DNA from: Desulfobacterales bacterium
Lineage (GTDB): Bacteria; Desulfobacterota; Desulfobulbia; Desulfobulbales; JAGXFP01
Length of the DNA: 64,000 bases
Assembly: GCA_024637225.1 (NCBI GenBank)
Contig: JAGXFP010000071.1
Coordinates: forward strand, 48,784 to 112,783
Reading direction: 5' to 3'
The position numbers and the translations under genes are program-made. Under the pieces are notes generated by a model. It was given only the letters and a program-made list of their open reading frames with translations, did not search any database and was not told the DNA's origin. Shown in pieces: positions 6,571-58,675 of the stretch; position 1 is the stretch's first letter; every line of letters begins with the position of its first letter.

Positions 6571-6822
6571 CCGCCTTGGATGATCCTGATAGCGCCTGCC
6601 GCTTTGAATAAGACAGAAATATTTGCTTTTTGCCCAATCATTTCGCCTCTTTTCTCCTCTCTGATCATATCTGTTGAACGTTCCCCTTCAAATGTTCTAG
6701 AATAAATAAATTATTTTTTTGCCGGAGCATTGCCTGGACAGCTGTTTATCCGGAGGAGCTCCAGCCGGAAGAAAAAATCGCCGGGAGTTTGCAGATGGAA
6801 TTCTTGCCCGATTGTGCAAAAG

Positions 6823-8040
6823 ATGACTGAGAATACACCTTCCCGGCATAACAGCAGGGAAATGTATGACGGAAAAATTCTTTCCGGACCTTATAGCTCC
6901 GGGCTCAAAGAAAGTCTTCTCTCCTCCATCGCCCACTTTAAGGCCCTTGAAGGGGCCGGCTCTCCGATAATCCCTTATATTGCCGCCTGGCTTCCGGAGG
7001 GAGGTGATATCTGGTATGAATACGCCGGGACCAGGTTGCGCGAATTGCTCGGATTCCGGACCACCGAAGTGGCGGGGGCGCTGCGGGACAATATCCTCAG
7101 CCGTTGTCTGTACCGGATCCAGGAAAAACCTCCCGGAATCGACAAAATCATTCGGGATAAGGAACAGATCACCCGATTGCGTAAAGTGATGCGGCGCGTG
7201 GCTGAGCGCGGCGGCGGCATTGACGCGGTTTATAAGTTCTCCGCGAACGGCCGCCCCTTGTGGCTCAAGGATCTGGCCAGAATCGAAATCCACGACCGGG
7301 ACCGGATCGTGCTTTCTTACGGGACCCTGATCGACGTCACCAAGGAGATGCAGTTGGAGGAGACTCTTTTCGAGGTTCAGCACGAACTGGAATTCCACAA
7401 GGTAAATCTGGAATCATTGGTGGAGGAACGGTCCAGGGAGCTGAGCAGGGCCCATCTGGATGTCCTGGCCCGCCTCACCCAGGCGACAGCCTTCCGGGAC
7501 GGCAGCACCGGCGCCCACATAAAAAGGTTAAGTCGGTATTGCGCGGTCCTCGGCGACTCATTCGGTTTGAGCAAAAGAGCCCTGGAAATCATCTTCCATG
7601 CCGTGCCCATGCACGATGTCGGCAAGATAGGAATAGCTGATGCGATTCTGCAGAAACAGGGGCCGCTTTCCCATGATGAATTCGAGATCATAAAAACCCA
7701 TTGTCGGGTGGGCTCGGATCTGCTTAGCAAAGGCAAATCCACCCTTTTAAAGGTGGCCCAGTCCATTGCCCTTAACCATCATGAAAGGTGGGATGGCTCC
7801 GGCTATCCGCAAGGGCTGGCGAGCCGGCAGATACCGCTGGCCAGCCGGATTACCTCGATATGCGATGTCTTTGATGCCCTGGCTTCGGAACGGCCGTACA
7901 AAAAGGCCTGGTCCTTCGAAGAGGCGGTGGAGGAAGTCTGGGATCTGCGGGGAAAATATTTTGATCCGGATCTGGTCGACCTTTTTATGAAAAATATCCC
8001 GCGGATAAGAAGGATCTACCGGGAAACCCCTGCGGGTTAG
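6823..8040 (+). CDS. HD-GYP domain protein (putative c-di-GMP phosphodiesterase) with an N-terminal PAS-like sensor region
   Basis: HDVGKIGI ... HHERWDGSGYPQGL motifs. The start is uncertain; the M at 6823 (MTENTPS) is preferred to 6730. Confidence 0.85.
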   Translation: MTENTPSRHNSREMYDGKILSGPYSSGLKESLLSSIAHFKALEGAGSPIIPYIAAWLPEGGDIWYEYAGTRLRELLGFRTTEVAGALRDNILSRCLYRIQEKPPGIDKIIRDKEQITRLRKVMRRVAERGGGIDAVYKFSANGRPLWLKDLARIEIHDRDRIVLSYGTLIDVTKEMQLEETLFEVQHELEFHKVNLESLVEERSRELSRAHLDVLARLTQATAFRDGSTGAHIKRLSRYCAVLGDSFGLSKRALEIIFHAVPMHDVGKIGIADAILQKQGPLSHDEFEIIKTHCRVGSDLLSKGKSTLLKVAQSIALNHHERWDGSGYPQGLASRQIPLASRITSICDVFDALASERPYKKAWSFEEAVEEVWDLRGKYFDPDLVDLFMKNIPRIRRIYRETPAG

Positions 8041-46818: not shown

Positions 46819-47514
46819 ATGAAAATAAACAAATCGACAGCTAAATCGGCAAACCGGGGCAGCCGGGGCTTTTCCCTGGTCGAATTGATGATCGTGGTCG
46901 CGATTCTCGGCATCCTGGCGGTTGCGGTCGGGGTGAATATCAATTCTGCCAATAGCAGGCTGAAGTCCTTTGTCTTCAACACCAAGGCCCGCTTCAATCA
47001 GACCCGTTTCGAGGCTGTCAAGCGCAGCCGCGATGTCTATCTTGAGTTTCATCTAAACATGGACGAGACTGGTTATTCGTCGACGGCGGCGCCGGACAAC
47101 GGTTTTACGATCTGGGTGGATGAAAATGGCGATGGAAACTATACTTCATGGGACATCGGGACGGATGATGACAACAGCAACGGCGAATGTGATGCGGGCG
47201 AGGGCGATTGTGTCTTATCCGTGGTTACGTTTCCCGCTGATGGTCCGGAGATCTATCGTCCCACCATCACCGGCGGGCCGGGTACGGACGGTCCGGGGTC
47301 AATTACCATCAGCAGCGACGGGGTGACTGCACCTAGTAATCGTTTCATGTTCAGGCCCGACGGTGACTGTCCCAATAATGGTTCTGTCTATTTTTATTAC
47401 CCTTCCGGCGGCAAGGTCGCGTCCGGCCCCTGGGCGATCATCGTCAATACTGTGGGCCGGATCCGGGTTGACGAATGGCGCTCCACCAACGGCTGGCAGG
47501 GTGATTTGCCTTGA
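46819..47514 (+). CDS. GspH/FimT-like type IV minor pilin
   Basis: Prepilin N-terminal cleavage/methylation motif RG|FSLVELMIVVAILGILA with Glu at +5. First gene of the cluster. Confidence 0.75.
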   Translation: MKINKSTAKSANRGSRGFSLVELMIVVAILGILAVAVGVNINSANSRLKSFVFNTKARFNQTRFEAVKRSRDVYLEFHLNMDETGYSSTAAPDNGFTIWVDENGDGNYTSWDIGTDDDNSNGECDAGEGDCVLSVVTFPADGPEIYRPTITGGPGTDGPGSITISSDGVTAPSNRFMFRPDGDCPNNGSVYFYYPSGGKVASGPWAIIVNTVGRIRVDEWRSTNGWQGDLP

Positions 47515-47555
47515 TTTTCTTAAGATCGCCGGTCTGCCCGGGAAAAGGAAAAGAT

Positions 47556-48539
47556 ATGGATGCCGGAACTATAAAGAAAAACGGTGGTTATACCCTGGTC
47601 GAGGTGATGGTCGCCATGGCCATCTCCCTTATTGTTCTGGCCGGGGTTTATAAAGCGATTGTCGATGAGAGCGTCAATTTCGAAAAAGATGAGGCGGTCC
47701 TGGATATGCAAAACAACGCCCGGGTCGCCATCGCCAGGATTGCCCGGGATATCCGCCGGACCGGTTTTTTCGGCTGCGGCGGCGAGCTTAGCGCCAATAC
47801 GGTGGCAGGTTTCAGTTTTCCCCCGACTTCCATTGTCTTCGCCGGTGACGATTCCACTAATTCCGCCATCGATGACGGCACCGATTCGATTACCCTGCAA
47901 TTTCTGGCCGGGGATGTTCCGGTCGATGTTGATACCCCTACTACCCTGCCGTCCGCAACAGACCCCATTACCCTTTACAGGAAGGCCTTTAATAATGGTG
48001 ACACCCTCTATGTCACTGATTGTGAGGAATACGCCATTTTTGATAAGACAAATGGTACGGAGCCCTCCAAGACTGTGGAACATGGAGTCAACTTGGGTCG
48101 GGCCTACGGGACGCCTCTGCCGGCCCGGGTCTATCGTTTCGAAACGGCTGTCTATCGGGTTAACGGCGCTCAGCTAAGAGATATAAATGGGCAGGTGATC
48201 GCTAACAATATCGAGGACCTGCAGTTCGAGTTTATCACCGATTCCGATGATGACGGTGAGCTAAACGATGAAAACTGGGCCAATACCTTTACCAATGCCG
48301 CCGATGTCCGGGCCATCCGGATCTGGGTGCTGGCCATGAGCGATACGGCCTATTCCTATACCGATACCAATACCTACGACTACCCGAACAGCCCTTATCA
48401 CAGCGGGACAGCTCCGTACAATACCAACGGAACCGGCGGCTCGCCCGCCTCCCAGACCGGGTTGTCCGCGGATCTAAAACATCGCTACCGGTATCTGGCT
48501 TCTACTATTGTCTACCTGCGTAACGCCGCGATTGTCTGA
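47556..48539 (+). CDS. pilW: PilW-like type IV minor pilin
   Basis: G|YTLVEVMVAMAISLIVL prepilin motif. Size and position are typical of PilW. The ATG at 47556 has an AAAGGAAAAG RBS. Confidence 0.7.
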   Translation: MDAGTIKKNGGYTLVEVMVAMAISLIVLAGVYKAIVDESVNFEKDEAVLDMQNNARVAIARIARDIRRTGFFGCGGELSANTVAGFSFPPTSIVFAGDDSTNSAIDDGTDSITLQFLAGDVPVDVDTPTTLPSATDPITLYRKAFNNGDTLYVTDCEEYAIFDKTNGTEPSKTVEHGVNLGRAYGTPLPARVYRFETAVYRVNGAQLRDINGQVIANNIEDLQFEFITDSDDDGELNDENWANTFTNAADVRAIRIWVLAMSDTAYSYTDTNTYDYPNSPYHSGTAPYNTNGTGGSPASQTGLSADLKHRYRYLASTIVYLRNAAIV

Positions 48540-48557
48540 GTCTTACAGGAGAGTTTT

Positions 48558-48983
48558 ATGAGAAGATCGTTTCTGCGTAATGAAAAAGGTTTCACCATCC
48601 TGGAGGCGGTGTTCGCCGCCGGCATTCTGGCCTTTGCCATCCTCAGTTATACGATGCTGAAAACCTCAAGCCGTTACAGCCAGGGTTTTTCCAAGCAGCT
48701 TTCCCAGGGCATCCAGCTGTCGGACTCGCAGATGGATGACTTCGCCCGACGCGGTTACAACGACGGTCTACTGACGGCCACGGCCGGCACGGCTGTCCAC
48801 CTGTATTCGGAGCTGGGGGATGCACTGGAAATCGGAGATTTTACCATGGGTGGCGCCACCTGGACCGTCAAGGAAGGCTGCCCCGGGGAATTAAGCAAGC
48901 TTATCACGTTTACCGGCCAGTGGAATATGCAGGCCGATCCTCCTAAAGAATTTCAAACCACTAGGGTGCAGGTGAGGCCATGA
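48558..48983 (+). CDS. pilV: PilV-like type IV minor pilin
   Basis: KG|FTILEAVFAAGILAF prepilin motif, 141 aa, AGGAGAG RBS. Confidence 0.65.
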   Translation: MRRSFLRNEKGFTILEAVFAAGILAFAILSYTMLKTSSRYSQGFSKQLSQGIQLSDSQMDDFARRGYNDGLLTATAGTAVHLYSELGDALEIGDFTMGGATWTVKEGCPGELSKLITFTGQWNMQADPPKEFQTTRVQVRP

Positions 48984-49585
48984 GAGGAACGAGAACAGTC
49001 GAATTGACGTCTTTGAATCAGCGGGGAATGGCGCTTGTTTCCGCCCTGCTGATGCTGGTGGTCCTTTCGCTGATGGCAATCGCTTTGAGCATGGACAGCT
49101 CGATGAATGTGCGGATTGCCGGATATGAGCGCCTCAAGGCCCGCTCCTTCGGGTTTGCCGAATCGGGCCTGATGGCCTCCACCGATCTGCTGGAAGATAA
49201 TATCCATGAGGCAGGCTGGGATGAGGCGCTCCCCTTTGAATACCCCAATCTCAGCTCCCTTTATACCGGCGATTCCGATGGGAATAAGATCGATATTGTC
49301 GGCAGCAGCGGGGTTTTTTATCTGGAGGCTAACCCCGGAGATTGTGGCGAGGGTGATCCGGTCATGGAAATGAGGGGCGATATCGAAGCCGATGTCGTTG
49401 TACAGCGGTTGATCGCCAAGGTCGCCACTGGCGGCGCCATGCAGGTGGCCGCCGGCTACGAAGGGGTCGGCAAGAGCCTTGGCGCCGGCGGCGCCCATAT
49501 TCTCTACAATATCCGCGCCGTCGGTATGGAAGCGAATGATACGGCTACGGAGCTGGCCATGCATTATCGGGTGGTAACGAATTAG
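48980..49585 (+). CDS. pilX: PilX-like pilus assembly protein
   Basis: N-terminus RGMALVSALLMLVVLSLMAIAL is the PilX_N-type hydrophobic segment and lacks Glu5. ATGA overlap with the preceding gene. Confidence 0.6.
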   Translation: MRGTRTVELTSLNQRGMALVSALLMLVVLSLMAIALSMDSSMNVRIAGYERLKARSFGFAESGLMASTDLLEDNIHEAGWDEALPFEYPNLSSLYTGDSDGNKIDIVGSSGVFYLEANPGDCGEGDPVMEMRGDIEADVVVQRLIAKVATGGAMQVAAGYEGVGKSLGAGGAHILYNIRAVGMEANDTATELAMHYRVVTN

Positions 49586-49660
49586 CCCCCGTTTTTTCAG
49601 GAATAGCATGGATCGGCAAGCTGATTCGGAGAACATCCGGGTCTTGGAGATCAGTTATAT

Positions 49661-52600
49661 ATGGAGCAAGGTAATGCCATGAAGGGGATGATCGGAAGAG
49701 AAGCCTGGAAGCTCGTGATTTTTGCAATTTTTCTGGGATTGCTGCCGGCTCTCAACGTCGGCGCGGTTAGGGCTGCCGGCGAGACCATGTCTGACTATAC
49801 GAAACTGCCGGCCTTTCTTGAAACCGGCTTAAAACCCAACCTGCTGCTGTTGATTGATAATTCGGCCAGCATGTACGATCCGGCCTATCTGGATCCGGTT
49901 GTTGAAGAACTGGATGCTCAAGGCGACCCCACCGGTAAGACATTATCCGGCGGGATCGATTTTTGTTTTGCCGATGATTACGACAATGCCGTGGCCTATG
50001 CCGGCTATTTCAGTCCGCTGGCGGAAATCTGGTATAGATATGTCGATTCCCCGTTCTGCTCCAATGACACTTACGCCAATGAGTCCGATTGTACGGCTAA
50101 TTCGGGAACATGGAATGATGCCGACGACCAGTTTATCCAGCTATCGAAGAGCGAAGCTGAAACTTTTTGTTCGGACGAAACCGGCATCGAATATGCCAGC
50201 GACGACCTGTGCATCACCGTTAACTCCGGAACAGACCCCGATACGGTGACGGCTTTTGCCGCCAAGGGCAGATTCCTGAACTGGCTGGCCGCCTCCAAGT
50301 TCGATGTCGAAAAGGAGATCCTCAGCGGCGGTAAATATCATCAAACCAATAACGAACTGATTATGGAAACCCGGGGCTGCATGGGCAAAAGGTTTGTCAA
50401 GTCTGAGGAGGTCTACCTCAACGGCGATTCCACCACCACCCCATATTATTCCACCTTTGCGATCAGGCCGCCCGATGACGGCTCAGACGGGACCGATGAG
50501 ATCACCGATGATCAGGCCTACAACGGCTCTTCGCACAACACCAGGATCGAGATATACAAAGTCAGTTTGACCGGGTTCGATGCCGATAGCTGTAATACCG
50601 TCATCTCGGAGTTCACCGAATCGCGGCCGGAGCTCGGCAGCATAACCTCGGTAATCGATACCTGTCTGGGCCCGGAGACCCCGGAGGAATCCGTGGTCTT
50701 GAACCACGTAACCCAGGAGTGCTGGTACTATAATGTCTTTGGTGTGTTTCAGTCGGGTGAGGGCTCGGTTACTTCGCTGAAGGGCAAATGCGAGGATATA
50801 TATAACGCCAGTTCCGGAGACAAACCGCCGCCCGACGATTACCAGAGTCCCGCCGAACTGTCGGCCGGCGAGCTGTGTTACGGTGAATACGATTCATCCC
50901 ATTCAGCAGGGGGCGAGCCTTGGGGGTCGGGCTACATGGGTCAGTGCTGGGAGGAGCAGTATGCTAGGTGGGACGATAATCCGTGCGTAGGCGACGGGAC
51001 CAATGTCTCGGCGGCCACCGCCATCCAGGACGCGAACGAATTCTGGTATTACTGCGCCGATAACGACAGCGATAGCGTGGATGAATATATCAGGTGCGGT
51101 AAAAACCAGCGACATTCCTGTCAAGCCAGCGACTGGACCGTATGGCAAACTCCCGTTTCAGCCGATCCATCCGGTGTGCCCGCGGAAGTATACTGGACCA
51201 ATGACGAGGTGGTAGCCGGCAGTGAGACCACCGCCAAGCAGGGCAACACTTGCGCGCAATATGCTCTGGAATCCTTTTGCACGGAACTGGATCAGCAAAC
51301 CACGGTTGATCCCTCCGATGGTATAAAGGGCTCAAACAGCGGAGCTAAAATCCCGGCGACCTTGGTGGATTACGCGGTGAGCGGCCAACTTGGCGACCCC
51401 CTGAAAACGCTGAAAGGCAGAGTGGTTCCGCCGCAAGAGCCGGTGGGCTTGATCAATGAATTCAAATACAACCTCCGCATGGGAGCGATGGTCTTTAACG
51501 ACGGCACCGCCACGGAGTGCGCCTCGGTGGAGGACCGTCCCGGCAGCGGGCGTTATGTGGCTTCTCTTTATGGTTGTATGGAAGTCGATCATACCAACGG
51601 CGCAATCCTGAGTAATCCTCCCAAAAAAGACGGGGGGCGGATAATTGCATATATCGATGAAGGTGACGGTCACATCGACTCACTGGTGGAGGCGATTAAC
51701 GATGTCAATGCCGATACCTGGACTCCGACCGCCGAGGCGATGTACAACGCGATCGGCTACTTTACCCAGGACAGCACCAATGACCTCCGGATCAACCCGC
51801 CGACCGGGGACCCTGCCCTGGGGTTTGGCGGCGATTTTATCCGCGATAGCGATTGGGGACTTAATTTCGGGGCCTCCGATATGAACGCCTGGGCGATCGG
51901 AACTCCCTACGCGAAAGGCGATATTGTCTATACGGCCGCCAATAAAATGGGCTATACCAAGCTTTATCGGGCCAAAAACGCCGGGACCTCCGCCTATTGC
52001 GCCGATTGCAGCTATATCGAGGAGGACAGCGGGGTGAAATGGATGCCTTATGACCCGGTCCAGGCCGGCTGCCAGAGCAACAATGTTCTTCTGATCACCG
52101 ACGGCGCCTCGACGGCCGATATCCATGGGAATGGTATCGCCTCCGGGATGACCGACTTCGTCACCGCGGGCAACGACGACAGCGATTTGGCCGCCACCTG
52201 GATTGCGACCGAGACCGAGCCGACAGATTACGAATGCATGAGCTGGATTGACAAAACGGGGGCGAGCAATACCGACGGCGTATTTGATTTTGGAGAACCG
52301 ATTGTCCATAAAAATTACGGCAGCACCCTGCTCGACGATCTGACTTACTATGGGCATAGCGGCTCGACAATTTATTCCCATTCGGCTATCGGCGGCGTCG
52401 ACAAGGAGCCGATCAAGACCCATATCGTCGCGGCCGGCACCCTGCGGAATGACGCTCCCGGTCTGGAATGTAATTCCCGGACCATTCTCAACTCGGCGGC
52501 CGACAACGGCGGCACCACTCTGGTTGAGGCCGCCGACCCCACCGACCTTGAAGAGAAATTGCGGGATGTTTTCGAGGCCATCGGCGGCGAGGTTTCGTCC

Positions 52601-55600
52601 GGTTCGGCCGCCTCGGTCATCTCCCACTCTCGTAGCGGTGACGGCGCGATTTATCAGGCGATCTTCTACCCCAAGCAGGTCGACGCCCAGATGAACGAGG
52701 TCGACTGGACTGGCGATGTCCATGCCTTGTGGCTTGACGCCCACGGCAATATCCGCGAGGATTGCGGCGCCACTGACTGTACGGGAACGACCGGCGATAA
52801 AACAATGAACCCCCGGGTTGACCGAATAGTGACGTTTTACACGGATGCCACCGGCTCCGCCATGGCAAGGTTGTTCAGCGATGCGAATGGCGACGGCAGT
52901 TACGATAATTCCGCCTCCTGTTCCGACCCGACCTATACCAATGAAGACGATTGCGAGGACAATTTCAAGGTCTGGAGCTACGCGGACAATCCTGATTTTG
53001 TCGATGATGGTGTCTTGTTGAAGGATTTGCTTTATATCTGGAGCGCCGCCGACTGGCTGGCCGACGCCTCGCCTGGCCAGAGAGCTTATGACAGCGTCGC
53101 TTCGGAGCGCTATATCTTCACGATGCTGCCTGACGCCAGCGGCAATCCAGACATGGTGGCTTTTACCACGAGCGCCCTTGGTCCGCCGAGTGGAGCGTTT
53201 ACAGCCGATGAGTATGACGGTTACTTAAACGCCTTCTCCTCGCTGGATTCCGATATAAACCGCACCGCTGACGGGATCGTCAACTATGTCCGGGGGCTGG
53301 ACCAGACCGGTTACCGGTCGAGGCAGATCGACTGGACCCCCTCGACCGGTCTGGAGACCGTTAAGCTGGGCGATATCATTCATTCCACCCCGACCCTGGT
53401 CGGATCGCCGGCGGAAAACTACGATGTAATCTATGGCGATCCCACCTATCGGAACTTTCGGAAAAAATATCAGAACCGGCGGGCGGTGATCTACGCCGGC
53501 GGCAACGACGGTGGCATGCACGCCTTTAACGGCGGCTATTACGACCGGCACAACAAGCGGTTTCTTAAGGCCCCGCCGGTGCCCGGGTCCGACCCGGTTG
53601 TCTACGAGACCCAATATGATCTGGCCGCCGAGTTATGGATGTATGTGCCGAAAAATATTTTACCGCATCTCCGCTGGCTGACCGATCATAATTATGGTGA
53701 CGGCCATGTCTATTATGTTGACGGCAAGCCCTATATCTTCGATGGCAAGATTTTCTCGGAAGAAGCGGCATGTACTGATGCCGATTTGACGAATGATGAC
53801 CAGTGTCTCCATCCCGGCGGCTGGGGCACGGTCCTGGTCGGCGGCATGCGCTTCGGCGGCGGTAATATCGGGGTGGACATTGATGGTGCCGGTGATGACG
53901 AGATCATTCGCTCCGCCTATTTTATTCTGGACATCACCAATCCCGAATATCCGCCGGTGGTCCTGGCGGAATTCACCGATGAGGACTTGGGATATACCAT
54001 CGGGTCGCCCACCGCCATTCCGATGTTGCGCTGCGATAAGAACACCGTCGCCGGCCTGGGCGACTGCAATACCAAGAACTGGCCGATGGACTGGTATCTG
54101 GCCTTCGGCTCCGGCCCCCACAGCGATGATCCGGTTCCGGCCGGCCCCCAGGAAGGGATGCGGGGGGTGAGCGACCAAAACGCCAAGCTTTATGTAATGA
54201 GGTTGGGCGGCACCAATACCAGCGGGCTGACCCCGGCCTCTCTCGGCCATCTCGGCAGCGGCCAGGTCGCCAGCGGCGTTGTCTCCTTCAGCAACCAGCC
54301 GATTCTGGTGAGTGTCAATGGCGTAACTTCCGGGCAATGCAGTGATCCTGCCCATACCACCGAGGCTGACTGTTTGGGCGCCGCGGAAATATGGATTAGC
54401 GATCCCTTTACACCCGGAGCCTGCAGTGATTTCACTTCGGCCGACGAGGCGGCTTGCCTGGCCGCCGGTAAGGTGTGGAACCCGGTTTCCTGTAAGGGTA
54501 TTCCCGGCGTTTGGGATACCTATTCCTCTTTTAACTGCGTGGGTTCCGGCCCGGGCCGCTATTGGGATCACTGGTGGGGATTGAATACTGGAAGGGGATG
54601 TTACGAGAGGACTTCCACCGAGGAGTGTCTGGCAAGGTCAGGTTGGTGGGTTCCGGGAAATAACGCTTCGGGGATATGCAGCGACACCCGGGATACGAGT
54701 AAAAGTGAGTGCTTGCGTTTTTACGGCACTTGGAAAAATACCTATCCGAATTCCTTTTTCGGCGATTTTATCGCGGTCGATTATGATCTGGACTTCAAGA
54801 CCGATACGCTTTATTTCGGTTCGGTCCTGGATACTCGGAGCTGGGCCGGCCATGAGGCCCACGGCGGCGCTTTGCATCGGCTGGTGAGCGGCGATAACCC
54901 CGACCCGGCCACCTGGAGCTTTAATCTGTTTTCCAACGTCGGCAGTCCGGTTGCCGCCGCCCCCTCGGTGGCCTCCGACGGCCAGCGGGCCTGGGTCTAT
55001 TTCGGCACCGGACGCTATTACTCCGCCGAGGAGGACAAGGCGATTGCCACCCCGTTCCAGCCCACCAGGTTTCTGGGGCTTAAGGAGCGCTACGGCGACG
55101 ACGGCAATATGGACCTTACCCTGCCGAACGGCGGCAATCTGGTCGATGTTACCGCGACCTGGGTCAAGCCGGGCGGGGAGCTCGTTTCACCTCCACCTTC
55201 AATCACGGGCGTTGGCACGTTCGATGAGTTGAACGTTAAAATCTCGGAACTGGATACCGACACGACGAATGACGACAAGGATATATATCACGGCTGGAAA
55301 ATCAATCTGGCCGGCCGGGAGCGGGTTATCGGCCAACCCGCCATTCTGGGGGATATCGTGACCTTCACCTCGTATATTCCATCGGATGACCCCTGTGAGC
55401 CCGATGGTACCAGTTACCTGTGGGCGGTATATTACCGGACCGGCACCGCTTACCATAAATCGGTTATCGGCACGAAGGTCAGGACTGAAGGCACCGAGGT
55501 CTTGAGAAAGGTCGGCCTCGGCAGCGGACTTTCCACCACCCCCAATATCCATGCCGGCGCCGGCGATGGTACCAAGGCCTTTGTCCAGAGCAGTACCGGC

Positions 55601-55696
55601 GCTATCCTGAGTATCGAACAGACCAATCCCGGCGTGGTAAAAAGCGGGATGAGATCGTGGCGGGAGCTGAGCGGAAAAGGTAGTAGCTGCAATTGA
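49661..55696 (+). CDS. pilY1: giant PilY1/PilC-family type IV pilus tip adhesin (2011 aa) with split vWA motifs and Cys-rich insertions
   Basis: Signal peptide. vWA/MIDAS elements are LLLLIDNSASM (aa 61-71), NLRMGAMVFND, TWTPTAEAM and VLLITDGAST (aa 809-818). PilY1 propeller signatures are LGDIIHSTPTLVGSP, IYAGGNDGGMHAFN, WGTVLVGGMRFGG, YFILDITNP and DYDLDFKTDTLYFG. Confidence 0.85.
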   Translation: MEQGNAMKGMIGREAWKLVIFAIFLGLLPALNVGAVRAAGETMSDYTKLPAFLETGLKPNLLLLIDNSASMYDPAYLDPVVEELDAQGDPTGKTLSGGIDFCFADDYDNAVAYAGYFSPLAEIWYRYVDSPFCSNDTYANESDCTANSGTWNDADDQFIQLSKSEAETFCSDETGIEYASDDLCITVNSGTDPDTVTAFAAKGRFLNWLAASKFDVEKEILSGGKYHQTNNELIMETRGCMGKRFVKSEEVYLNGDSTTTPYYSTFAIRPPDDGSDGTDEITDDQAYNGSSHNTRIEIYKVSLTGFDADSCNTVISEFTESRPELGSITSVIDTCLGPETPEESVVLNHVTQECWYYNVFGVFQSGEGSVTSLKGKCEDIYNASSGDKPPPDDYQSPAELSAGELCYGEYDSSHSAGGEPWGSGYMGQCWEEQYARWDDNPCVGDGTNVSAATAIQDANEFWYYCADNDSDSVDEYIRCGKNQRHSCQASDWTVWQTPVSADPSGVPAEVYWTNDEVVAGSETTAKQGNTCAQYALESFCTELDQQTTVDPSDGIKGSNSGAKIPATLVDYAVSGQLGDPLKTLKGRVVPPQEPVGLINEFKYNLRMGAMVFNDGTATECASVEDRPGSGRYVASLYGCMEVDHTNGAILSNPPKKDGGRIIAYIDEGDGHIDSLVEAINDVNADTWTPTAEAMYNAIGYFTQDSTNDLRINPPTGDPALGFGGDFIRDSDWGLNFGASDMNAWAIGTPYAKGDIVYTAANKMGYTKLYRAKNAGTSAYCADCSYIEEDSGVKWMPYDPVQAGCQSNNVLLITDGASTADIHGNGIASGMTDFVTAGNDDSDLAATWIATETEPTDYECMSWIDKTGASNTDGVFDFGEPIVHKNYGSTLLDDLTYYGHSGSTIYSHSAIGGVDKEPIKTHIVAAGTLRNDAPGLECNSRTILNSAADNGGTTLVEAADPTDLEEKLRDVFEAIGGEVSSGSAASVISHSRSGDGAIYQAIFYPKQVDAQMNEVDWTGDVHALWLDAHGNIREDCGATDCTGTTGDKTMNPRVDRIVTFYTDATGSAMARLFSDANGDGSYDNSASCSDPTYTNEDDCEDNFKVWSYADNPDFVDDGVLLKDLLYIWSAADWLADASPGQRAYDSVASERYIFTMLPDASGNPDMVAFTTSALGPPSGAFTADEYDGYLNAFSSLDSDINRTADGIVNYVRGLDQTGYRSRQIDWTPSTGLETVKLGDIIHSTPTLVGSPAENYDVIYGDPTYRNFRKKYQNRRAVIYAGGNDGGMHAFNGGYYDRHNKRFLKAPPVPGSDPVVYETQYDLAAELWMYVPKNILPHLRWLTDHNYGDGHVYYVDGKPYIFDGKIFSEEAACTDADLTNDDQCLHPGGWGTVLVGGMRFGGGNIGVDIDGAGDDEIIRSAYFILDITNPEYPPVVLAEFTDEDLGYTIGSPTAIPMLRCDKNTVAGLGDCNTKNWPMDWYLAFGSGPHSDDPVPAGPQEGMRGVSDQNAKLYVMRLGGTNTSGLTPASLGHLGSGQVASGVVSFSNQPILVSVNGVTSGQCSDPAHTTEADCLGAAEIWISDPFTPGACSDFTSADEAACLAAGKVWNPVSCKGIPGVWDTYSSFNCVGSGPGRYWDHWWGLNTGRGCYERTSTEECLARSGWWVPGNNASGICSDTRDTSKSECLRFYGTWKNTYPNSFFGDFIAVDYDLDFKTDTLYFGSVLDTRSWAGHEAHGGALHRLVSGDNPDPATWSFNLFSNVGSPVAAAPSVASDGQRAWVYFGTGRYYSAEEDKAIATPFQPTRFLGLKERYGDDGNMDLTLPNGGNLVDVTATWVKPGGELVSPPPSITGVGTFDELNVKISELDTDTTNDDKDIYHGWKINLAGRERVIGQPAILGDIVTFTSYIPSDDPCEPDGTSYLWAVYYRTGTAYHKSVIGTKVRTEGTEVLRKVGLGSGLSTTPNIHAGAGDGTKAFVQSSTGAILSIEQTNPGVVKSGMRSWRELSGKGSSCN

Positions 55697-55809
55697 TGAT
55701 TGCCGGTCCTGAAAAAAACAGGGCACGGGCCGGGAGCGCACGGATACATGAATAACTCAGGTTGAGGACATGTGCCAGGGAACTGAAGATTAAAGGTAGT
55801 TAAAACTGA

Positions 55810-56268
55810 ATGGGACGTAAGATGACAAGGATGTTGAAAGCAGGATCAGGAAGCGGGGGCTTCAGTCTGATCGAGGTGATGGTCGTGATCGCTATTATCG
55901 GGATTCTGTCGGCGGTGGCGGTGCCGGCCTATTTCAATCATGTCATGCGGAACCGCCAGACCGACGCGGTTTACGAGTTGATGGCGATCAATGCCTCCCA
56001 GGAGAGGTATTTCGCCGAAAAGGGCACCTATGCCGCTGTTTTTGGAGACCTGGATCATTATGACGGCGCCGGCACCGATTATACCGGCAAATATTTTACC
56101 TATAATCTGTCCGGCGGCATGATTACCGCCACCGCCGATCTTGACGGTGATCCGGCCACTCAAACGATTTGGCGGGTAAGGGTCGGGGATATCAACGATA
56201 AGCCGAGCCAGGTCAGTTCCAACGAGGAATTCGGCTGGTCTGCCCTGGCGGCGGTGCTGGCCGATTAG
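55810..56268 (+). CDS. type IVa pilin (PilE/PilA-like)
   Basis: GG|FSLIEVMVVIAIIGILSAVAVPAYFNHVMRNRQ. The exact start is ambiguous (ATGs at 55810, 55822 and 55831). Confidence 0.85.
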   Translation: MGRKMTRMLKAGSGSGGFSLIEVMVVIAIIGILSAVAVPAYFNHVMRNRQTDAVYELMAINASQERYFAEKGTYAAVFGDLDHYDGAGTDYTGKYFTYNLSGGMITATADLDGDPATQTIWRVRVGDINDKPSQVSSNEEFGWSALAAVLAD

Positions 56269-56328
56269 GAGATTTACCGGTTTCGGCAAAGCGATGCCGG
56301 AATCATCTTGACTTGATGGAGATGGAAG

Positions 56329-56787
56329 ATGTCTTTTGTGAAAAGGATCTTGTTGTTCGCCGGGACGGTGGTTTTGTCCCAGCTGTTTTGTATGTACGCC
56401 GCCGCTGCTCAAACTCCGCTGAAAAGAGCGGATGTTTTCATTAATCAAAAATACAGCATGCCGATAGAGTTCGATAAAAGACTGCTGGACAGGAATTTTC
56501 GGCAAAAGATCGACAGGCAGCAGCTTAAAGAATTGCTCCGGCCCCGGGAGGTTTCCTATGTGCCTTTCCAGATCAGCACCACGGCCGGCCCCTTTGCCGT
56601 TTCGGTTCACACCGAGGTAGTTAGGGATGGCGGCGCCATCAATATTGACGATCTGCCCGTGCCGTGTTCGGCCTATGTCTTTTTTTACTCTTCTTCGGAG
56701 GGAAGACCTCCGATCGCGATGAAAATTGTGGTTAATAATGTCGCCGATGAGGCCACGGTAAGATGGAGCCGGGCGGCCCCGAAATAA
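56329..56787 (+). CDS. orphan secreted protein (152 aa)
   Basis: GGAGATGG RBS. Signal peptide ILLFAGTVVLSQLFCMYAAAAQ. No recognised motif. It lies between the pilin and the ATPase gene. Confidence 0.55.
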   Translation: MSFVKRILLFAGTVVLSQLFCMYAAAAQTPLKRADVFINQKYSMPIEFDKRLLDRNFRQKIDRQQLKELLRPREVSYVPFQISTTAGPFAVSVHTEVVRDGGAINIDDLPVPCSAYVFFYSSSEGRPPIAMKIVVNNVADEATVRWSRAAPK

Positions 56788-56884
56788 TTAAGCCTGGATT
56801 TTATTTGAGTAAGCTGGATGGCTATCGGCTGATGATAAGAGCATCTTTTTGTTGTGCAAAATTATATTCGTTTAACAGTGTCCG

Positions 56885-58675
56885 ATGAGCTATATCAATA
56901 ACTCCACATACCTTTTCGACCTGCTGGTCCGGGAGGAGCTGATCTCGGAAGAGCAGAAGGAGATGCTTGCCCGAAAGGGTTCCCATCAGCGCCAGCTCCT
57001 GCTCCGGGAGCGGCGCAAGAAGAGCGGTTCGACCCGGCGGGTCCGGGAGCCGGATCTGGTCGAGGTTATTGTCTCCCTCCACCTGGAGATTCCCGGCGAC
57101 AAACATCATCCCCTGACCGAAGAGATGATCATGCGGACCGTGGCCGGGGACCACGATTTGCCGTTCAAGAAGCTCGACCCCCTGGAACTCGATCTGGAGG
57201 TGGTCACCAGGACCATTCCCAAGAATTACGCGGTCAAGCATCTGATGATCCCGTTCGCCCTTAAAAACGGGGTGCACGAGATCGCCATGTACGATCCGGT
57301 CAAGCTCGAGGTCCTGGAGGAAATCGAGCGGGCCAACAAGATCACCATCAAGCCCTATATCAGCACCCGGACCGATATCAGCCGGATGCTGGCCGAGTTT
57401 TTCGGCTTCCAGAGCTCAATTTCGGCGGCCGAGGTCCATCTGGCCAAGCCGCTGGTCGATCTCGGCAACCTCGAGCAGTACGTCAAGATCAATCGGGCCG
57501 GCGAGATCACCTCTTCCGACCATCATATCACCGCCGCGGTCGATCATTTTTTCACCTACGCCTTCGATCAGCGGGCCAGCGACATCCATATCGAGCCGAA
57601 ACGGGAAAAGAGCCTGATCCGGCTGCGGATCGACGGGGTGCTCCACACCATCTACACCCTGCCGATGGCGGTCCATTCGGCCATCGTTTCCCGACTGAAG
57701 ACCCTGGCCCGGATGAACATCGCCGAGCGCCGGCGCCCCCAGGACGGCCGGATCAAGGTGGATCACGAGGATCAGGAGGCCGAGATCCGGGTCTCCACCG
57801 TGCCGGTGGCCTTCGGCGAGAAGGTGGTGATGCGGATTCTCGATTCGGCGGTGATGTTCCAGGATGTCGAGACCCTGGGGTTCAGCGCCCGCGATCTCGA
57901 AATCTACCGGGGCTTCATGAAGAGCCCCCACGGCATCGTCCTGGTCACCGGCCCGACCGGCAGCGGTAAATCGACCACCCTCTACTCAACCTTAAAGCAG
58001 ATCTCCACTTCCGAAAACAATGTGACCACCGTCGAAGATCCGATCGAGATGATTCACGAGGAGTTCAACCAGATCGCGGTCCAGAACCAGATCGACGTGA
58101 CCTTTTCGACGATCCTCCGCAATATCCTCCGCCAGGACCCGGATATCATCATGATCGGCGAGATCCGGGATCTGGATACGGCGGTCAATGCGATCCAGGC
58201 CGCCCTCACCGGCCATCTGGTTTTTTCGACTCTGCACACCAACGATGCGGTCTCCTCGATCAGCCGGCTTACCGATCTGGGCACCCAGCCCTTTCTGATC
58301 GGCTCGACTCTGTTGGGGGCCATGGCCCAGCGCCTGGTCCGGACCATCTGCCCGGACTGCCGGCAGCCCGTCAAGGTCGATGCCGGCCTGCTGCGCAATT
58401 TCGGCTTTCCCGTCGAGGGCGAGGGCAAGATCGAACTCCAGGCCGGGAAGGGCTGCCGGCAATGCCGGCAAACCGGCTTTCTGGGGCGGTCGGGCGTTTT
58501 CGAGATATTCCCCGTTTCCGATGCGATCAATCGGATGATCTGCCAGGGGGAGTCCGAAGCGGAGATCCGCGAGCAGGCGATCAAGGAAGGGATGACCACC
58601 CTTAAGGAAGATGCCTGGCGGAAGGTTAAAAAGGGGATCACCACCTACGAGGAGGCGGCCCGGGTCACCGGGTAA
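56885..58675 (+). CDS. pilB: GspE/PilB-family type IV pilus assembly ATPase
   Basis: T2SSE N-terminal domain, Walker A VTGPTGSGKSTTLY, Walker B IMIGEIRD, and the tetracysteine Zn motif CPDC...CRQC. Confidence 0.9.
   Translation: MSYINNSTYLFDLLVREELISEEQKEMLARKGSHQRQLLLRERRKKSGSTRRVREPDLVEVIVSLHLEIPGDKHHPLTEEMIMRTVAGDHDLPFKKLDPLELDLEVVTRTIPKNYAVKHLMIPFALKNGVHEIAMYDPVKLEVLEEIERANKITIKPYISTRTDISRMLAEFFGFQSSISAAEVHLAKPLVDLGNLEQYVKINRAGEITSSDHHITAAVDHFFTYAFDQRASDIHIEPKREKSLIRLRIDGVLHTIYTLPMAVHSAIVSRLKTLARMNIAERRRPQDGRIKVDHEDQEAEIRVSTVPVAFGEKVVMRILDSAVMFQDVETLGFSARDLEIYRGFMKSPHGIVLVTGPTGSGKSTTLYSTLKQISTSENNVTTVEDPIEMIHEEFNQIAVQNQIDVTFSTILRNILRQDPDIIMIGEIRDLDTAVNAIQAALTGHLVFSTLHTNDAVSSISRLTDLGTQPFLIGSTLLGAMAQRLVRTICPDCRQPVKVDAGLLRNFGFPVEGEGKIELQAGKGCRQCRQTGFLGRSGVFEIFPVSDAINRMICQGESEAEIREQAIKEGMTTLKEDAWRKVKKGITTYEEAARVTG

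Follow-up and report, generated by a model that had tools for sequence, protein, structure and literature searches.

A 24-residue two-cysteine module inserted into a PilY1-type pilus tip protein and found again in phage virion proteins

Background

Ig-like, FN3 and Big_2 domains are promiscuous, self-folding decorations of unrelated structural proteins and adhesins; they vary among close relatives and their role is probably accessory. They are beta-sandwiches of 80-100 residues without an obligatory disulfide, and Fraser et al. are said to have reported them in 2006 on phage virion as well as bacterial surface proteins. The module treated here differs from them in having 24 residues with two invariant cysteines and one tryptophan, and in usually being inserted in a loop instead of appended. 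As a very short, cysteine-held, often tandem and extracellular unit it resembles the EGF-like, thrombospondin type 3, twin CX9C/CHCH and Myxococcus cysteine-rich repeats, from which it is set apart by another number and spacing of cysteines, and profile searches gave no match to them. EGF_2 and TSP_3 do accompany the module in a few carriers, but only as domains distinct from it.

For PilY1 itself, the available part of a survey of Myxococcota reports that length and cysteine content rise jointly and that many disulfides are predicted (PMC13190605). Disulfide chemistry matters to PilY1 function according to the accessible text of that survey and of a further study (PMC8806160). The former counts cysteines and the latter treats one cysteine of the vWA domain; in the portions available, neither defines the repeat of the module. 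In the literature on CX10C motifs, cysteine-rich PilY1 repeats and a disulfide in gp8, no description of the module was found.

Results

Host protein and gene neighbourhood

The window, i.e. the whole stretch of 64,000 nucleotides that was analysed, carries a long open reading frame in which an earlier note had described nine copies of a repeated two-cysteine, one-tryptophan motif. The reading frame and its putative metal-binding loop are as follows.

49661-55696, plus strand: gene for a PilY1-type type IV pilus tip protein, 2011 aa, host of the modules
54779-54805, plus strand: D-x-D-x-D-x-x-x-D loop (DYDLDFKTD, aa 1707-1715), putative Ca-binding site

This gene encodes a PilY1-type type IV pilus tip adhesin. 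Its homologues carry the names PilY1 or PilC, and those with a named source point to Thermodesulfobacteriota (Desulfurivibrionaceae). The product begins with a signal-like hydrophobic stretch, so that its location suits disulfide formation. The earlier note had placed a block of copies within a PilY1 propeller, and the fold agrees: the propeller region was found by Foldseek to resemble 3HX6, the C-terminal domain of P. aeruginosa PilY1 (E = 5e-15, target TM-score 0.64-0.66), and the family profile searched against PDB gave E = 1.5e-36 for the same entry. At full length the protein had no match in Pfam. When an insert covering aa 1552-1694 was taken out, the PilY1 match was restored (PF05567, 30.9 bits at a cut-off of 28.1), and inserts of this kind would explain why profile searches miss host domains, as the Pfam PilY1 model does here.

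The gene is flanked by pilW/pilX-like genes on one side and by pilin and pilB genes on the other. Upstream are a PilW homologue (PF16074), an N_methyl protein and a PilX_N protein; downstream follow a pilin (N_methyl) and a T2SSE ATPase (E = 2e-122). The aspartates of the loop are conserved among 91 aligned sequences (D1707 in 91, D1709 in 72 and D1715 in 81), and the loop may be equivalent to the Ca site of P. aeruginosa PilY1, with Ca binding itself putative. Two precomputed or apparent domain assignments were discarded. PF28373, which is precomputed on the window protein, is not the module, as homologues without the module have it as well, and a CBM5/12-like stretch at aa 743-797 was without Pfam support.

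Module copies in the window protein

All nine strings of the earlier note were found where it had placed them, in the frame of the PilY1 gene. The pattern is far above chance: the loose expression C-x8-12-C-x4-7-W has 9 matches, where 2000 residue shuffles predict 0.40 (maximum 5), and the strict expression C[ST][DN]-x6-9-C-x4-7-W has 6, where they predict 0.0075 (maximum 1). For scoring the single copies we used an independent profile, built solely from 106 modules that belong to unrelated proteins other than PilY1; its noise level, taken as the best of 300 shuffles of the window protein, was 4.4 bits. Five copies are supported by this profile.

50051-50119, plus strand: copy A, PFCSNDTYANESDCTANSGTWND, aa 131-153, 37.5 bits (29.1 bits in a second scan)
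52913-52978, plus strand: copy B, ASCSDPTYTNEDDCEDNFKVWS, aa 1085-1106, 40.6 bits
54314-54742, plus strand: propeller insertion block, aa 1552-1694, ending about 13 aa ahead of the DxDxDxxxD loop
54329-54400, plus strand: copy C1, SGQCSDPAHTTEADCLGAAEIWIS, aa 1557-1580, 42.7 bits (35.9 bits in the second scan)
54413-54484, plus strand: copy C2, PGACSDFTSADEAACLAAGKVWNP, aa 1585-1608, 36.8 bits
54668-54733, plus strand: copy C3, SGICSDTRDTSKSECLRFYGTW, aa 1670-1691, 16.7 bits (23.9 bits in the second scan)

The remaining four strings scored close to noise or below it.

50168-50212, plus strand: CSDETGIEYASDDLC, Cys 170, a loose copy already in the earlier note, 3.0 bits; CSD alone matches, non-member
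53771-53824, plus strand: CTDADLTNDDQCLHPGGW, Cys 1371, 6.1 bits; borderline, membership doubtful
54032-54082, plus strand: CDKNTVAGLGDCNTKNW, Cys 1458, -2.8 bits; non-member
54599-54649, plus strand: CYERTSTEECLARSGWW, the CYERTSTEEC loop, Cys 1647, 0.5 bits; membership unsupported

The claim that nine copies form one module was thus narrowed to five, at Cys 133, 1087, 1560, 1588 and 1673, the first four of them scoring 37-43 bits; 1371 is doubtful, and 170, 1458 and 1647 match the loose regular expression only. Scores of 17-43 bits against a shuffle maximum of 4.4 show that the five are true members of one family. The motif might have arisen by chance or from the composition of a protein rich in Cys, Thr and Asp, and four of the nine listed copies do match nothing but the loose expression. 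We give this reading next to no credence, considering the shuffled counts of 0.4 and 0.0075 against 9 and 6 observed, the scores of five copies against a profile from unrelated proteins, and the hundreds of other proteins that carry the module. For the five canonical copies the artefact reading is already refuted.

As to the rejected or doubtful strings, the insertion in the region of CTDADLTNDDQCLHPGGW is limited to aa 1366-1373, and its tryptophan sits in the conserved scaffold motif HPGGWGT. CDKNTVAGLGDCNTKNW is a scaffold loop common to close homologues, modelled with a helix at aa 1463-1471 (pLDDT 86-91). CYERTSTEECLARSGWW may be a degenerate or a different cysteine loop; a loop resembling it is found in homologue P0002.

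Insertion and copy number among PilY1 homologues

Occupancy was computed on the BLAST-trimmed regions of 90 PilY1 homologues. The module copies lie in stretches with an occupancy below 0.1, i.e. missing in more than 90% of these homologues, and are lineage-specific insertions. Three sites of the window protein are decorated: an N-terminal one, one ahead of the propeller, and the array within the propeller beside the DxDxDxxxD loop. At the site of copy A, homologue P0003 also has a module copy. Copy B lies inside an insertion at aa 1084-1114 with a mean occupancy of 0.09, and a copy at its site is shared by homologues P0002-P0006 and P0013.

The earlier note had spoken of a block of four copies just before the DxDxDxxxD loop. 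An insertion is indeed present at aa 1552-1694 (occupancy 0.02-0.13 in the 90 homologues), with three canonical copies; the fourth, the CYERTSTEEC loop, is unsupported, and one extra Cys-x14-Cys loop (aa 1611-1626) completes the content of the block. Copy C2 is kept in P0002. Copy C3 adjoins the conserved PilY1 scaffold, and a copy in its register, 27-29 aa ahead of the FFGDFIAVDYD anchor, is found in P0002-P0007 and P0013. At this site, about 28 aa ahead of the DxDxDxxxD loop, the number of canonical copies is 0 in P0008-12, 1 in P0003, P0005, P0006 and P0013, 2-3 in P0002, P0004 and the window protein, and 12 in P0007, where neighbouring copies are near-identical, which points to recent tandem duplication. 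A range from 0 to 12 copies at one site and the low occupancy bear out the view that the module has been grafted into an adhesin.

The module family and its carriers

The module has 24 residues with the consensus x-G-x-C-S-[DN]-x-x-[YH]-T-[TDN]-[QEK]-x-x-C-x-A-A-x-x-T-W-T-P. Across 206 distinct instances, conservation is 100% for C4, C15 and W22, 94% for S5 and 83% for G2. A reading of the unit as a Cys-Gln thioester was discarded, position 12 being Q in just 35% of the instances.

Searching 1.84 billion representatives with the 24-position profile gave 310 protein clusters at E <= 1e-3, of which 62 reached E <= 1e-10 with 2-19 copies apiece. The carriers include prepilins, many of them from methanotrophs, multihaem cytochromes and FN3 proteins. 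Of 97 carriers, 22 have N_methyl as a partner domain, and further partners include multihaem cytochromes, FN3, VWA, Tad and Phage_Tail_Tip; for 120 module-rich prepilins, PF07963 is the sole precomputed Pfam entry. The module is spread across many bacterial phyla and is not specific to PilY1.

That the module belongs to no named family, as had been supposed, agrees with our searches: neither the window block, nor the 12-copy array of P0007, nor consensus-like arrays of other proteins matched a model of Pfam-A, NCBIfam or PHROGs significantly. A word-indexed search with a synthetic double module returned 153 candidates, none of them significant.

Phage carriers and T4 gp8

The strict pattern, applied at the DNA level to IMG/VR, matched 111 stretches of viral contigs, and the module is apparently enriched in viruses. 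The viral carriers comprise a head-tail adaptor (gp13-like neck protein), a tail protein, a gpL-like minor tail protein, a head closure protein and a virion protein, and baseplate proteins are also among the viral hits. A single copy of the module was present in 80 of 112 viral ORFs. A tblastn search of GenBank phages gave no match for the P0007 array or for P0119, probably as a result of the low-complexity filter and the short units.

Judged by its sequence, the segment of residues 140-162 in the baseplate wedge protein gp8 of phage T4 (PDB 1N7Z, 5IV5 and others) is a divergent member. The gp8 segment GMCSIASLTDKDECLKLGGKWTP (aa 140-162) aligns with profile positions 2-24, retaining the Gly, the two cysteines Cys142 and Cys153, the tryptophan Trp160 and the closing Thr-Pro. 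Searched alone against PDB the copy gave E = 0.79, i.e. it is divergent. Both Cys and the Trp are kept at this site in four diverse gp8 sequences, the equivalent site of Vibrio phage D484 gp8 scored 32 bits, and the peptide of the gp8 module matches 1469 phage records. No match to the beta-sandwich of PF09215 (the T4 gp8 family) was obtained; the module stretch alone touches profile positions 136-167 (E = 0.8). As in the window PilY1, the unit of gp8 interrupts a loop within a larger fold, whereas it is present there as a single copy, in a protein that is assembled in the cytoplasm and whose remainder is unrelated to PilY1, and the likeness is one of the module only.

Predicted fold

In the AlphaFold model, copy B is bridged at Cys1087 and again at Trp1105, and between them a helix (aa 1095-1100) spans Cys1098; pLDDT is 67-82. 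The model of an independent protein, prepilin P0098, shows the order bridge, loop, helix, bridge in six or seven of ten modules, with pLDDT mostly at 60-80. The same small unit, with a short helix, was therefore predicted in two independent proteins, in keeping with the small knob that the earlier note had proposed. Searching the prepilin model against PDB with Foldseek gave nothing significant. The propeller array (aa 1552-1694) was modelled at low confidence, pLDDT 30-60, an observation that tells against a knob.

Discussion

Proposed explanation

Our preferred reading is that the module is a self-folding surface knob, probably stapled by a disulfide, which has been inserted into loops and multiplied by tandem duplication; we put its probability at about 0.6, with the disulfide and the role inferred. 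The lineage of the window PilY1 would have acquired copies of an autonomous mini-domain of about 24 residues. Each would start with a short beta-bridge at the first Cys, followed by a loop; a helix of 5-6 residues, N-capped by position 11 (T/D/N), would bear the second Cys, and a second bridge would form at the invariant Trp. A disulfide between the two cysteines would shut the loop of 11 residues, with the Trp and Tyr packing on it. If the cysteines and aromatic residues are so used, nearly all conserved positions serve the fold and not a ligand. Such an oxidation-stabilised knob would be tolerated in surface loops, singly or head to tail with a period of 23-25 aa, and arrays would grow by tandem duplication.

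Most likely, the module adds a robust and variable exposed surface for adhesion or protection; a catalytic role is probably absent. With copies on phage virion proteins and on pilins, the module behaves like the Ig-like and FN3 accessory domains at a far smaller size. Phage virion proteins, T4 gp8 included, fold in the reducing cytoplasm, from which it follows that the fold either does without a disulfide or gains one once the cell has lysed. In the hosts, which are probably anaerobic Thermodesulfobacteriota, extracellular disulfides may be less stable, and this speaks against a staple. The carriers in neck and head closure are not obviously adhesive, which favours a structural over an adhesive role.

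Rival readings

Adhesins, pilins and phage tail and baseplate proteins all bear the module, which is rich in aromatic and hydroxyl residues and varies in copy number at an exposed PilY1 site. It could accordingly be a specific, lectin-like unit whose exposed Tyr, Trp, Thr and Asp bind polysaccharide or another shared surface ligand, with arrays raising avidity. We think this unlikely: nearly all the conserved positions have obvious roles in the fold (the Cys pair, Gly, the N-cap at position 11 and the Trp/Tyr core), leaving few for a ligand; neck and head-closure proteins carry the module and meet no receptors; and profile searches found no similarity to any carbohydrate-binding family. Quite improbable, in our judgement, is a metal-stapled knob or metal-handling site in which the two cysteines bind Zn, Cu or Fe and form no disulfide. 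It would suit phage proteins assembled in the cytoplasm, and the carriers do include several multihaem cytochromes, two Cu-binding_MopE matches and the many prepilins of methanotrophs; however, two Cys, no conserved His and the usual single copy in viral ORFs do not allow a four-ligand site within the chain, and the module itself matches no metal-binding family.

The disulfide-clamped units might instead serve the pilus tip mechanically or as redox elements, setting how far PilY1 extends under retraction force or acting as a redox switch, and so feed surface sensing. The array adjoins the conserved DxDxDxxxD loop, the available part of the Myxococcota survey finds more Cys and more predicted disulfides in long PilY1 variants (PMC13190605), and a cysteine of the vWA domain of P. 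aeruginosa PilY1 is required for force-dependent surface signalling, according to the accessible text of the sources (PMC8806160; reviewed in PMC9210963). That cysteine, however, sits in a different domain, nothing found here links the array to signalling, and the module is common in phage virion proteins, where such signalling is inapplicable; we regard this reading as very improbable.

Implications

Going beyond the preferred reading of a stapled knob, we propose tentatively, as possible rather than probable, that the module is an undescribed promiscuous mini-domain of 24 residues, among the smallest autonomous modules, apparently more frequent in contigs of viruses than in cellular genomes and swapped between phage virions and PilY1 or large prepilins. 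If this were true, a solved example would have gone unnoticed in T4 gp8 since 2003, the presence of the module on phage particles and pili would reflect a common ligand or a common need to survive outside the cell, and tandem expansion beside the DxDxDxxxD loop of PilY1 would tune adhesion of the pilus tip.

With a profile of the module, now blank parts of hundreds of protein clusters could be annotated, among them phage neck, tail and baseplate proteins, large methanotroph prepilins, PilY1 adhesins and extracellular cytochromes. Being tiny, self-contained and tolerated in many loops, the module is an instance from nature of grafting into loops and might serve as a scaffold for display. In PilY1, it flags a hypervariable array next to the conserved DxDxDxxxD loop.

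Host protein and gene neighbourhood

The repeat lies in an open reading frame (ORF) of 2011 amino acids with 45 cysteines, an odd number, and 45 tryptophans. The full-length protein gave zero matches in Pfam-A and NCBIfam, and phmmer gave none in PDB. Its 96 homologues (own database copy excluded) are mostly named PilY1 or PilC and belong to Thermodesulfobacteriota, Desulfobulbaceae, Geobacter/Geomonas and Nitrospirota. Modelled with AlphaFold2 (mean pLDDT 75), aa 1060-2011 match the C-terminal domain of P. aeruginosa PilY1 (3HX6, E = 5e-15), and a profile of the host family matches 3hx6 with E = 1.5e-36. Pfam T4P_PilY1 (PF05567) has no match in the full-length protein, even with the cut-off relaxed to E <= 1; when aa 1552-1694 were removed and the propeller part was scanned alone, it scored 30.9 bits against a threshold of 28.1. 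The host domain is masked from routine annotation by the 143-aa module block and the extra protein length. The DxDxDxxxD loop occupies aa 1707-1715, with D1707 found in all 91 sequences compared.

The region 47511-58675 looks like a complete type IV pilus tip and assembly cluster:

47511-48539, PilW
48558-48983, small prepilin
48980-49585, PilX_N protein
49661-55696, forward strand, PilY1
55810-56268, pilin with a ComP_DUS-type match
56885-58675, PilB/MshE-type ATPase

The PilY1 protein ends in S-C-N (aa 2009-2011, nt 55685-55693), and the final Cys-Asn is also present in the close homologues P0002, P0003, P0005 and P0007. A stretch at aa 743-797 (nt 51887-52051), AWAIGTPYAKGDIVYTA...VKWMPY, resembles a CBM5/12 chitin-binding module, and PF02839 is precomputed on several homologues; we regard this as resemblance only, since a local Pfam scan of the stretch gave no match.

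Assignment of the repeat copies

The nine C-x10-C-x5-6-W strings listed in the earlier note were all located in the ORF where it had placed them. The protein has 9 matches to a loose pattern, C-x8-12-C-x4-7-W, where shuffling predicts 0.40 (2000 shuffles, maximum 5), and 6 to a strict one, C[ST][DN]-x6-9-C-x4-7-W, where it predicts 0.0075. The repeat is therefore not a chance product. The nine copies had been taken as a single module, and this was evaluated with an independent profile built from 106 unit instances, all from outside the PilY1 family. The top score in 300 shuffles of the window protein was 4.4 bits.

Scores of the nine copies, named by first cysteine, with the independent profile
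Cys 133: 37.5 bits
Cys 1087: 40.6 bits
Cys 1560: 42.7 bits
Cys 1588: 36.8 bits
Cys 1673: 16.7 bits
Cys 1371: 6.1 bits
Cys 170, 1647 and 1458: about 0 bits each

Judged by profile score, the first five copies (16.7-42.7 bits) are members of one unit family, copy 1371 is borderline, and the remaining three match no more than the loose pattern. The tryptophan of copy 1371 is part of a conserved HPGGWGT scaffold, and copy 1458 is a scaffold loop common to close homologues. The description of four copies inserted as a propeller block stands for the insertion itself (aa 1552-1694), not for the CYERTSTEEC copy (Cys 1647, about 0 bits). The block holds two Cys-closed loops that are not modules, CKGIPGVWDTYSSFNC (aa 1611-1626, nt 54491-54538) and CYERTSTEEC (aa 1647-1656, nt 54599-54628); both have counterparts in homologue P0002. 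No other ORF of the 64-kb window carries the unit. The earlier observation is largely right, with five of its nine copies real, and the reading given to it is supported wherever it could be put to the test.

Definition of the unit family

Thirty instances taken from the window protein and close homologues served to build a seed profile. Among 1.84 billion proteins it matched 310 representatives at E <= 1e-3 (62 at E <= 1e-10, 5 at E <= 1e-30), with 2-19 matched stretches per protein among the matches listed. From profile hits and viral ORFs we assembled 206 distinct 24-residue instances, having the consensus x-G-[TS]-C-S-[DN]-P-x-[YH]-T-[TDN]-[QEK]-A-x-C-[ET]-A-A-[GS]-[EG]-T-W-T-P. C4, C15 and W22 are conserved in 100%, S5 in 94% and G2 in 83%.

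Nothing significant was found in Pfam-A, NCBIfam or PHROGs for the window block, the array of homologue P0007 or ten consensus-like carriers. This agrees with the earlier failure to name the module, within the scope of those three collections. For 120 module-rich prepilins, the precomputed Pfam annotation lists PF07963 alone. The only recurring faint matches were to T4-type baseplate profiles, namely Gp8 (positions about 124-174), Gp10_D3 and phrog_977. The unit appears to represent a family of small domains, of a generally familiar type and unnamed in Pfam-A, NCBIfam and PHROGs.

PF28373 is precomputed on the database copy of the window protein (P0001) and on most PilY1 homologues, and is absent from local Pfam scans of the window protein; it was rejected as the unit because it is also found on homologues lacking one. 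A 17-residue short form, G-x-C-S-D-P-T-H-T-x-x-x-x-C-x-A-A, without the Trp or T-W-T-P end, occurs in other proteins. It stands head to tail in P0101, another carrier (aa 66-119), and in a Candidatus Foliamicus locus (L164, ORF 6806-7999, minus strand). A unit spacing of 17 aa is as frequent among carriers as one of 23 aa.

Insertion sites and copy number

Window aa 1060-2011 were aligned with the corresponding regions of 90 homologues, and each of the stretches aa 1084-1114, 1366-1373 and 1552-1694 was present in less than about 10% of these. At site B (about aa 1085) P0001-P0006 and P0013 have a single copy each. Site C, the propeller block, ends 27-29 aa ahead of the anchor FFGDFIAVDYD, and the suggested check on copy number, run across PilY1 homologues, revealed variation from 0 to 12.

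Canonical copies at site C
0: P0008-P0012
1: P0003, P0005, P0006, P0013
2-3, plus degenerate loops: P0002, P0004, window protein
12: P0007 (Desulfurivibrionaceae)

The P0007 array, in a PilC/PilY protein from a metagenome-assembled genome, covers aa 1441-1781 at the same propeller site and adds 2-3 degenerate units. Adjacent units are near-identical, e.g. CSNDDYSNQDDCVAAFEKW and CSNDDYSNKTDCEAAFEKW, and three in succession are nearly alike, which points to recent tandem duplication. The window copies are old, as Tandem Repeats Finder detects no DNA repeat in their block.

Distribution in cellular and viral proteins

Of 97 carriers (up to 928 aa) sampled for partner domains, 22 have a prepilin N_methyl leader; other partners are multihaem cytochrome, FN3, Glug, EGF_2, PLD, VWA, Tad, Phage_Tail_Tip, PilY1 and Phage-Gp8. 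A crude screen for N-terminal hydrophobic stretches gave signal-like N-termini for 45 further proteins among 126 Met-starting hits. The large prepilins related to P0098 comprise at least 193 proteins of 350-760 aa with up to 12 units; most come from Methylococcales methanotrophs, among them cultured Methylobacter and Methylotuvimicrobium. Their units follow the pilin helix and precede a C-terminal beta-sandwich (P0098 aa 102-492), and their annotation consists of the N_methyl leader only.

A strict back-translated DNA pattern was scanned over IMG/VR viral contigs and GTDB species genomes (596 Gb), giving 111 viral against 50 genomic stretches. Chance matches are estimated at about 1 and about 9, respectively, the genome figure from the stated collection size and the viral one assuming roughly 6e10-1e11 bases. 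In the genomes, 47 of the 50 stretches are real ORFs with high-scoring units, and only three appear spurious. The taxa are very broad, including Desulfuromusa, Dehalococcoidia, Holophagales, Bdellovibrionales, candidate-phyla-radiation bacteria, a Woesearchaeote, Bradyrhizobium isolates and Actinobacteria. If, as assumed, the collection of viral contigs is much smaller than that of genomes, the apparent viral enrichment of the unit amounts to roughly tenfold or more. In viral ORFs it sits within otherwise unrelated virion proteins:

head-tail adaptor (phrog_211), T4 gp13-like neck protein of 292 aa; closest cultured relatives align over about 254 aa
tail protein (phrog_10775)
gpL-like minor tail protein (phrog_18)
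head closure protein (phrog_679)
virion structural protein (phrog_2941)

Viral ORFs of 1700-2700 aa carry 4-7 units each. The distribution is much wider than the PilY1 setting visible in the window.

Predicted structure and a probable solved example

In the window model, the unit at aa 1087 (pLDDT 67-82) has a bridge Ser1086-Cys1087, a helix at aa 1095-1100 including Cys1098, and a bridge Trp1105-Ser1106; the propeller block is poorly modelled (pLDDT 30-60). A separate model of prepilin P0098, from 79 sequences, has the matching pattern in 6-7 of 10 units, with a five-residue helix ending at the second Cys (pLDDT mostly 60-80), and flanking bridges in four of those. Foldseek found no analogue of this model in PDB. 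Position 11 is T, D, N or S, compatible with a helix N-cap, and the unit has no large hydrophobic residues besides Trp and Tyr; its conservation therefore seems mainly structural.

A broad profile matched one sequence in PDB, T4 gp8 (1N7Z and ten further entries), with residues 140-162, GMCSIASLTDKDECLKLGGKWTP, aligned to profile positions 2-24; the E-value of 0.79 is weak alone. Membership is supported by 1469 phage records matching the gp8 peptide in tblastn, by the presence of the two Cys and the Trp in each of four aligned gp8 proteins, and by the Vibrio phage D484 gp8 copy, GTCSVPTITNKSDCVAVGGTWDA, which scores 32 bits with the independent profile. On these alignments T4 gp8 is probably a solved example of the unit. 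The gp8 structure reportedly has finger-like loops with a helix inside, which would fit.

Proposed role

The best-supported reading is that the unit would be a self-folding knob, with a probable C4-C15 disulfide holding it closed, whose insertion may be tolerated in exposed loops and whose copies may multiply in tandem. It would serve as a robust accessory decoration of proteins working outside the cell, and in the window PilY1 the units may supply a variable surface adjoining the DxDxDxxxD loop.

Among the rivals, a putative role as a specific ligand binder is plausible and ranks highest; the occurrence of the unit in neck and head-closure proteins speaks against it. The metal stapling raised in the earlier note is unlikely, since just two Cys and no conserved His are available per unit and, in 80 of 112 viral ORFs, the unit occurs only once. 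Still lower we place a mechanical or redox element, suggested only by analogy with the vWA cysteine of P. aeruginosa PilY1 (PMC8806160, PMC9210963). Chance comes last and, for the five canonical copies, is ruled out. The passages searched of a 2026 PilY1 survey contain no definition of the unit; they describe long PilY1 variants as Cys-rich, with many predicted disulfides (PMC13190605).
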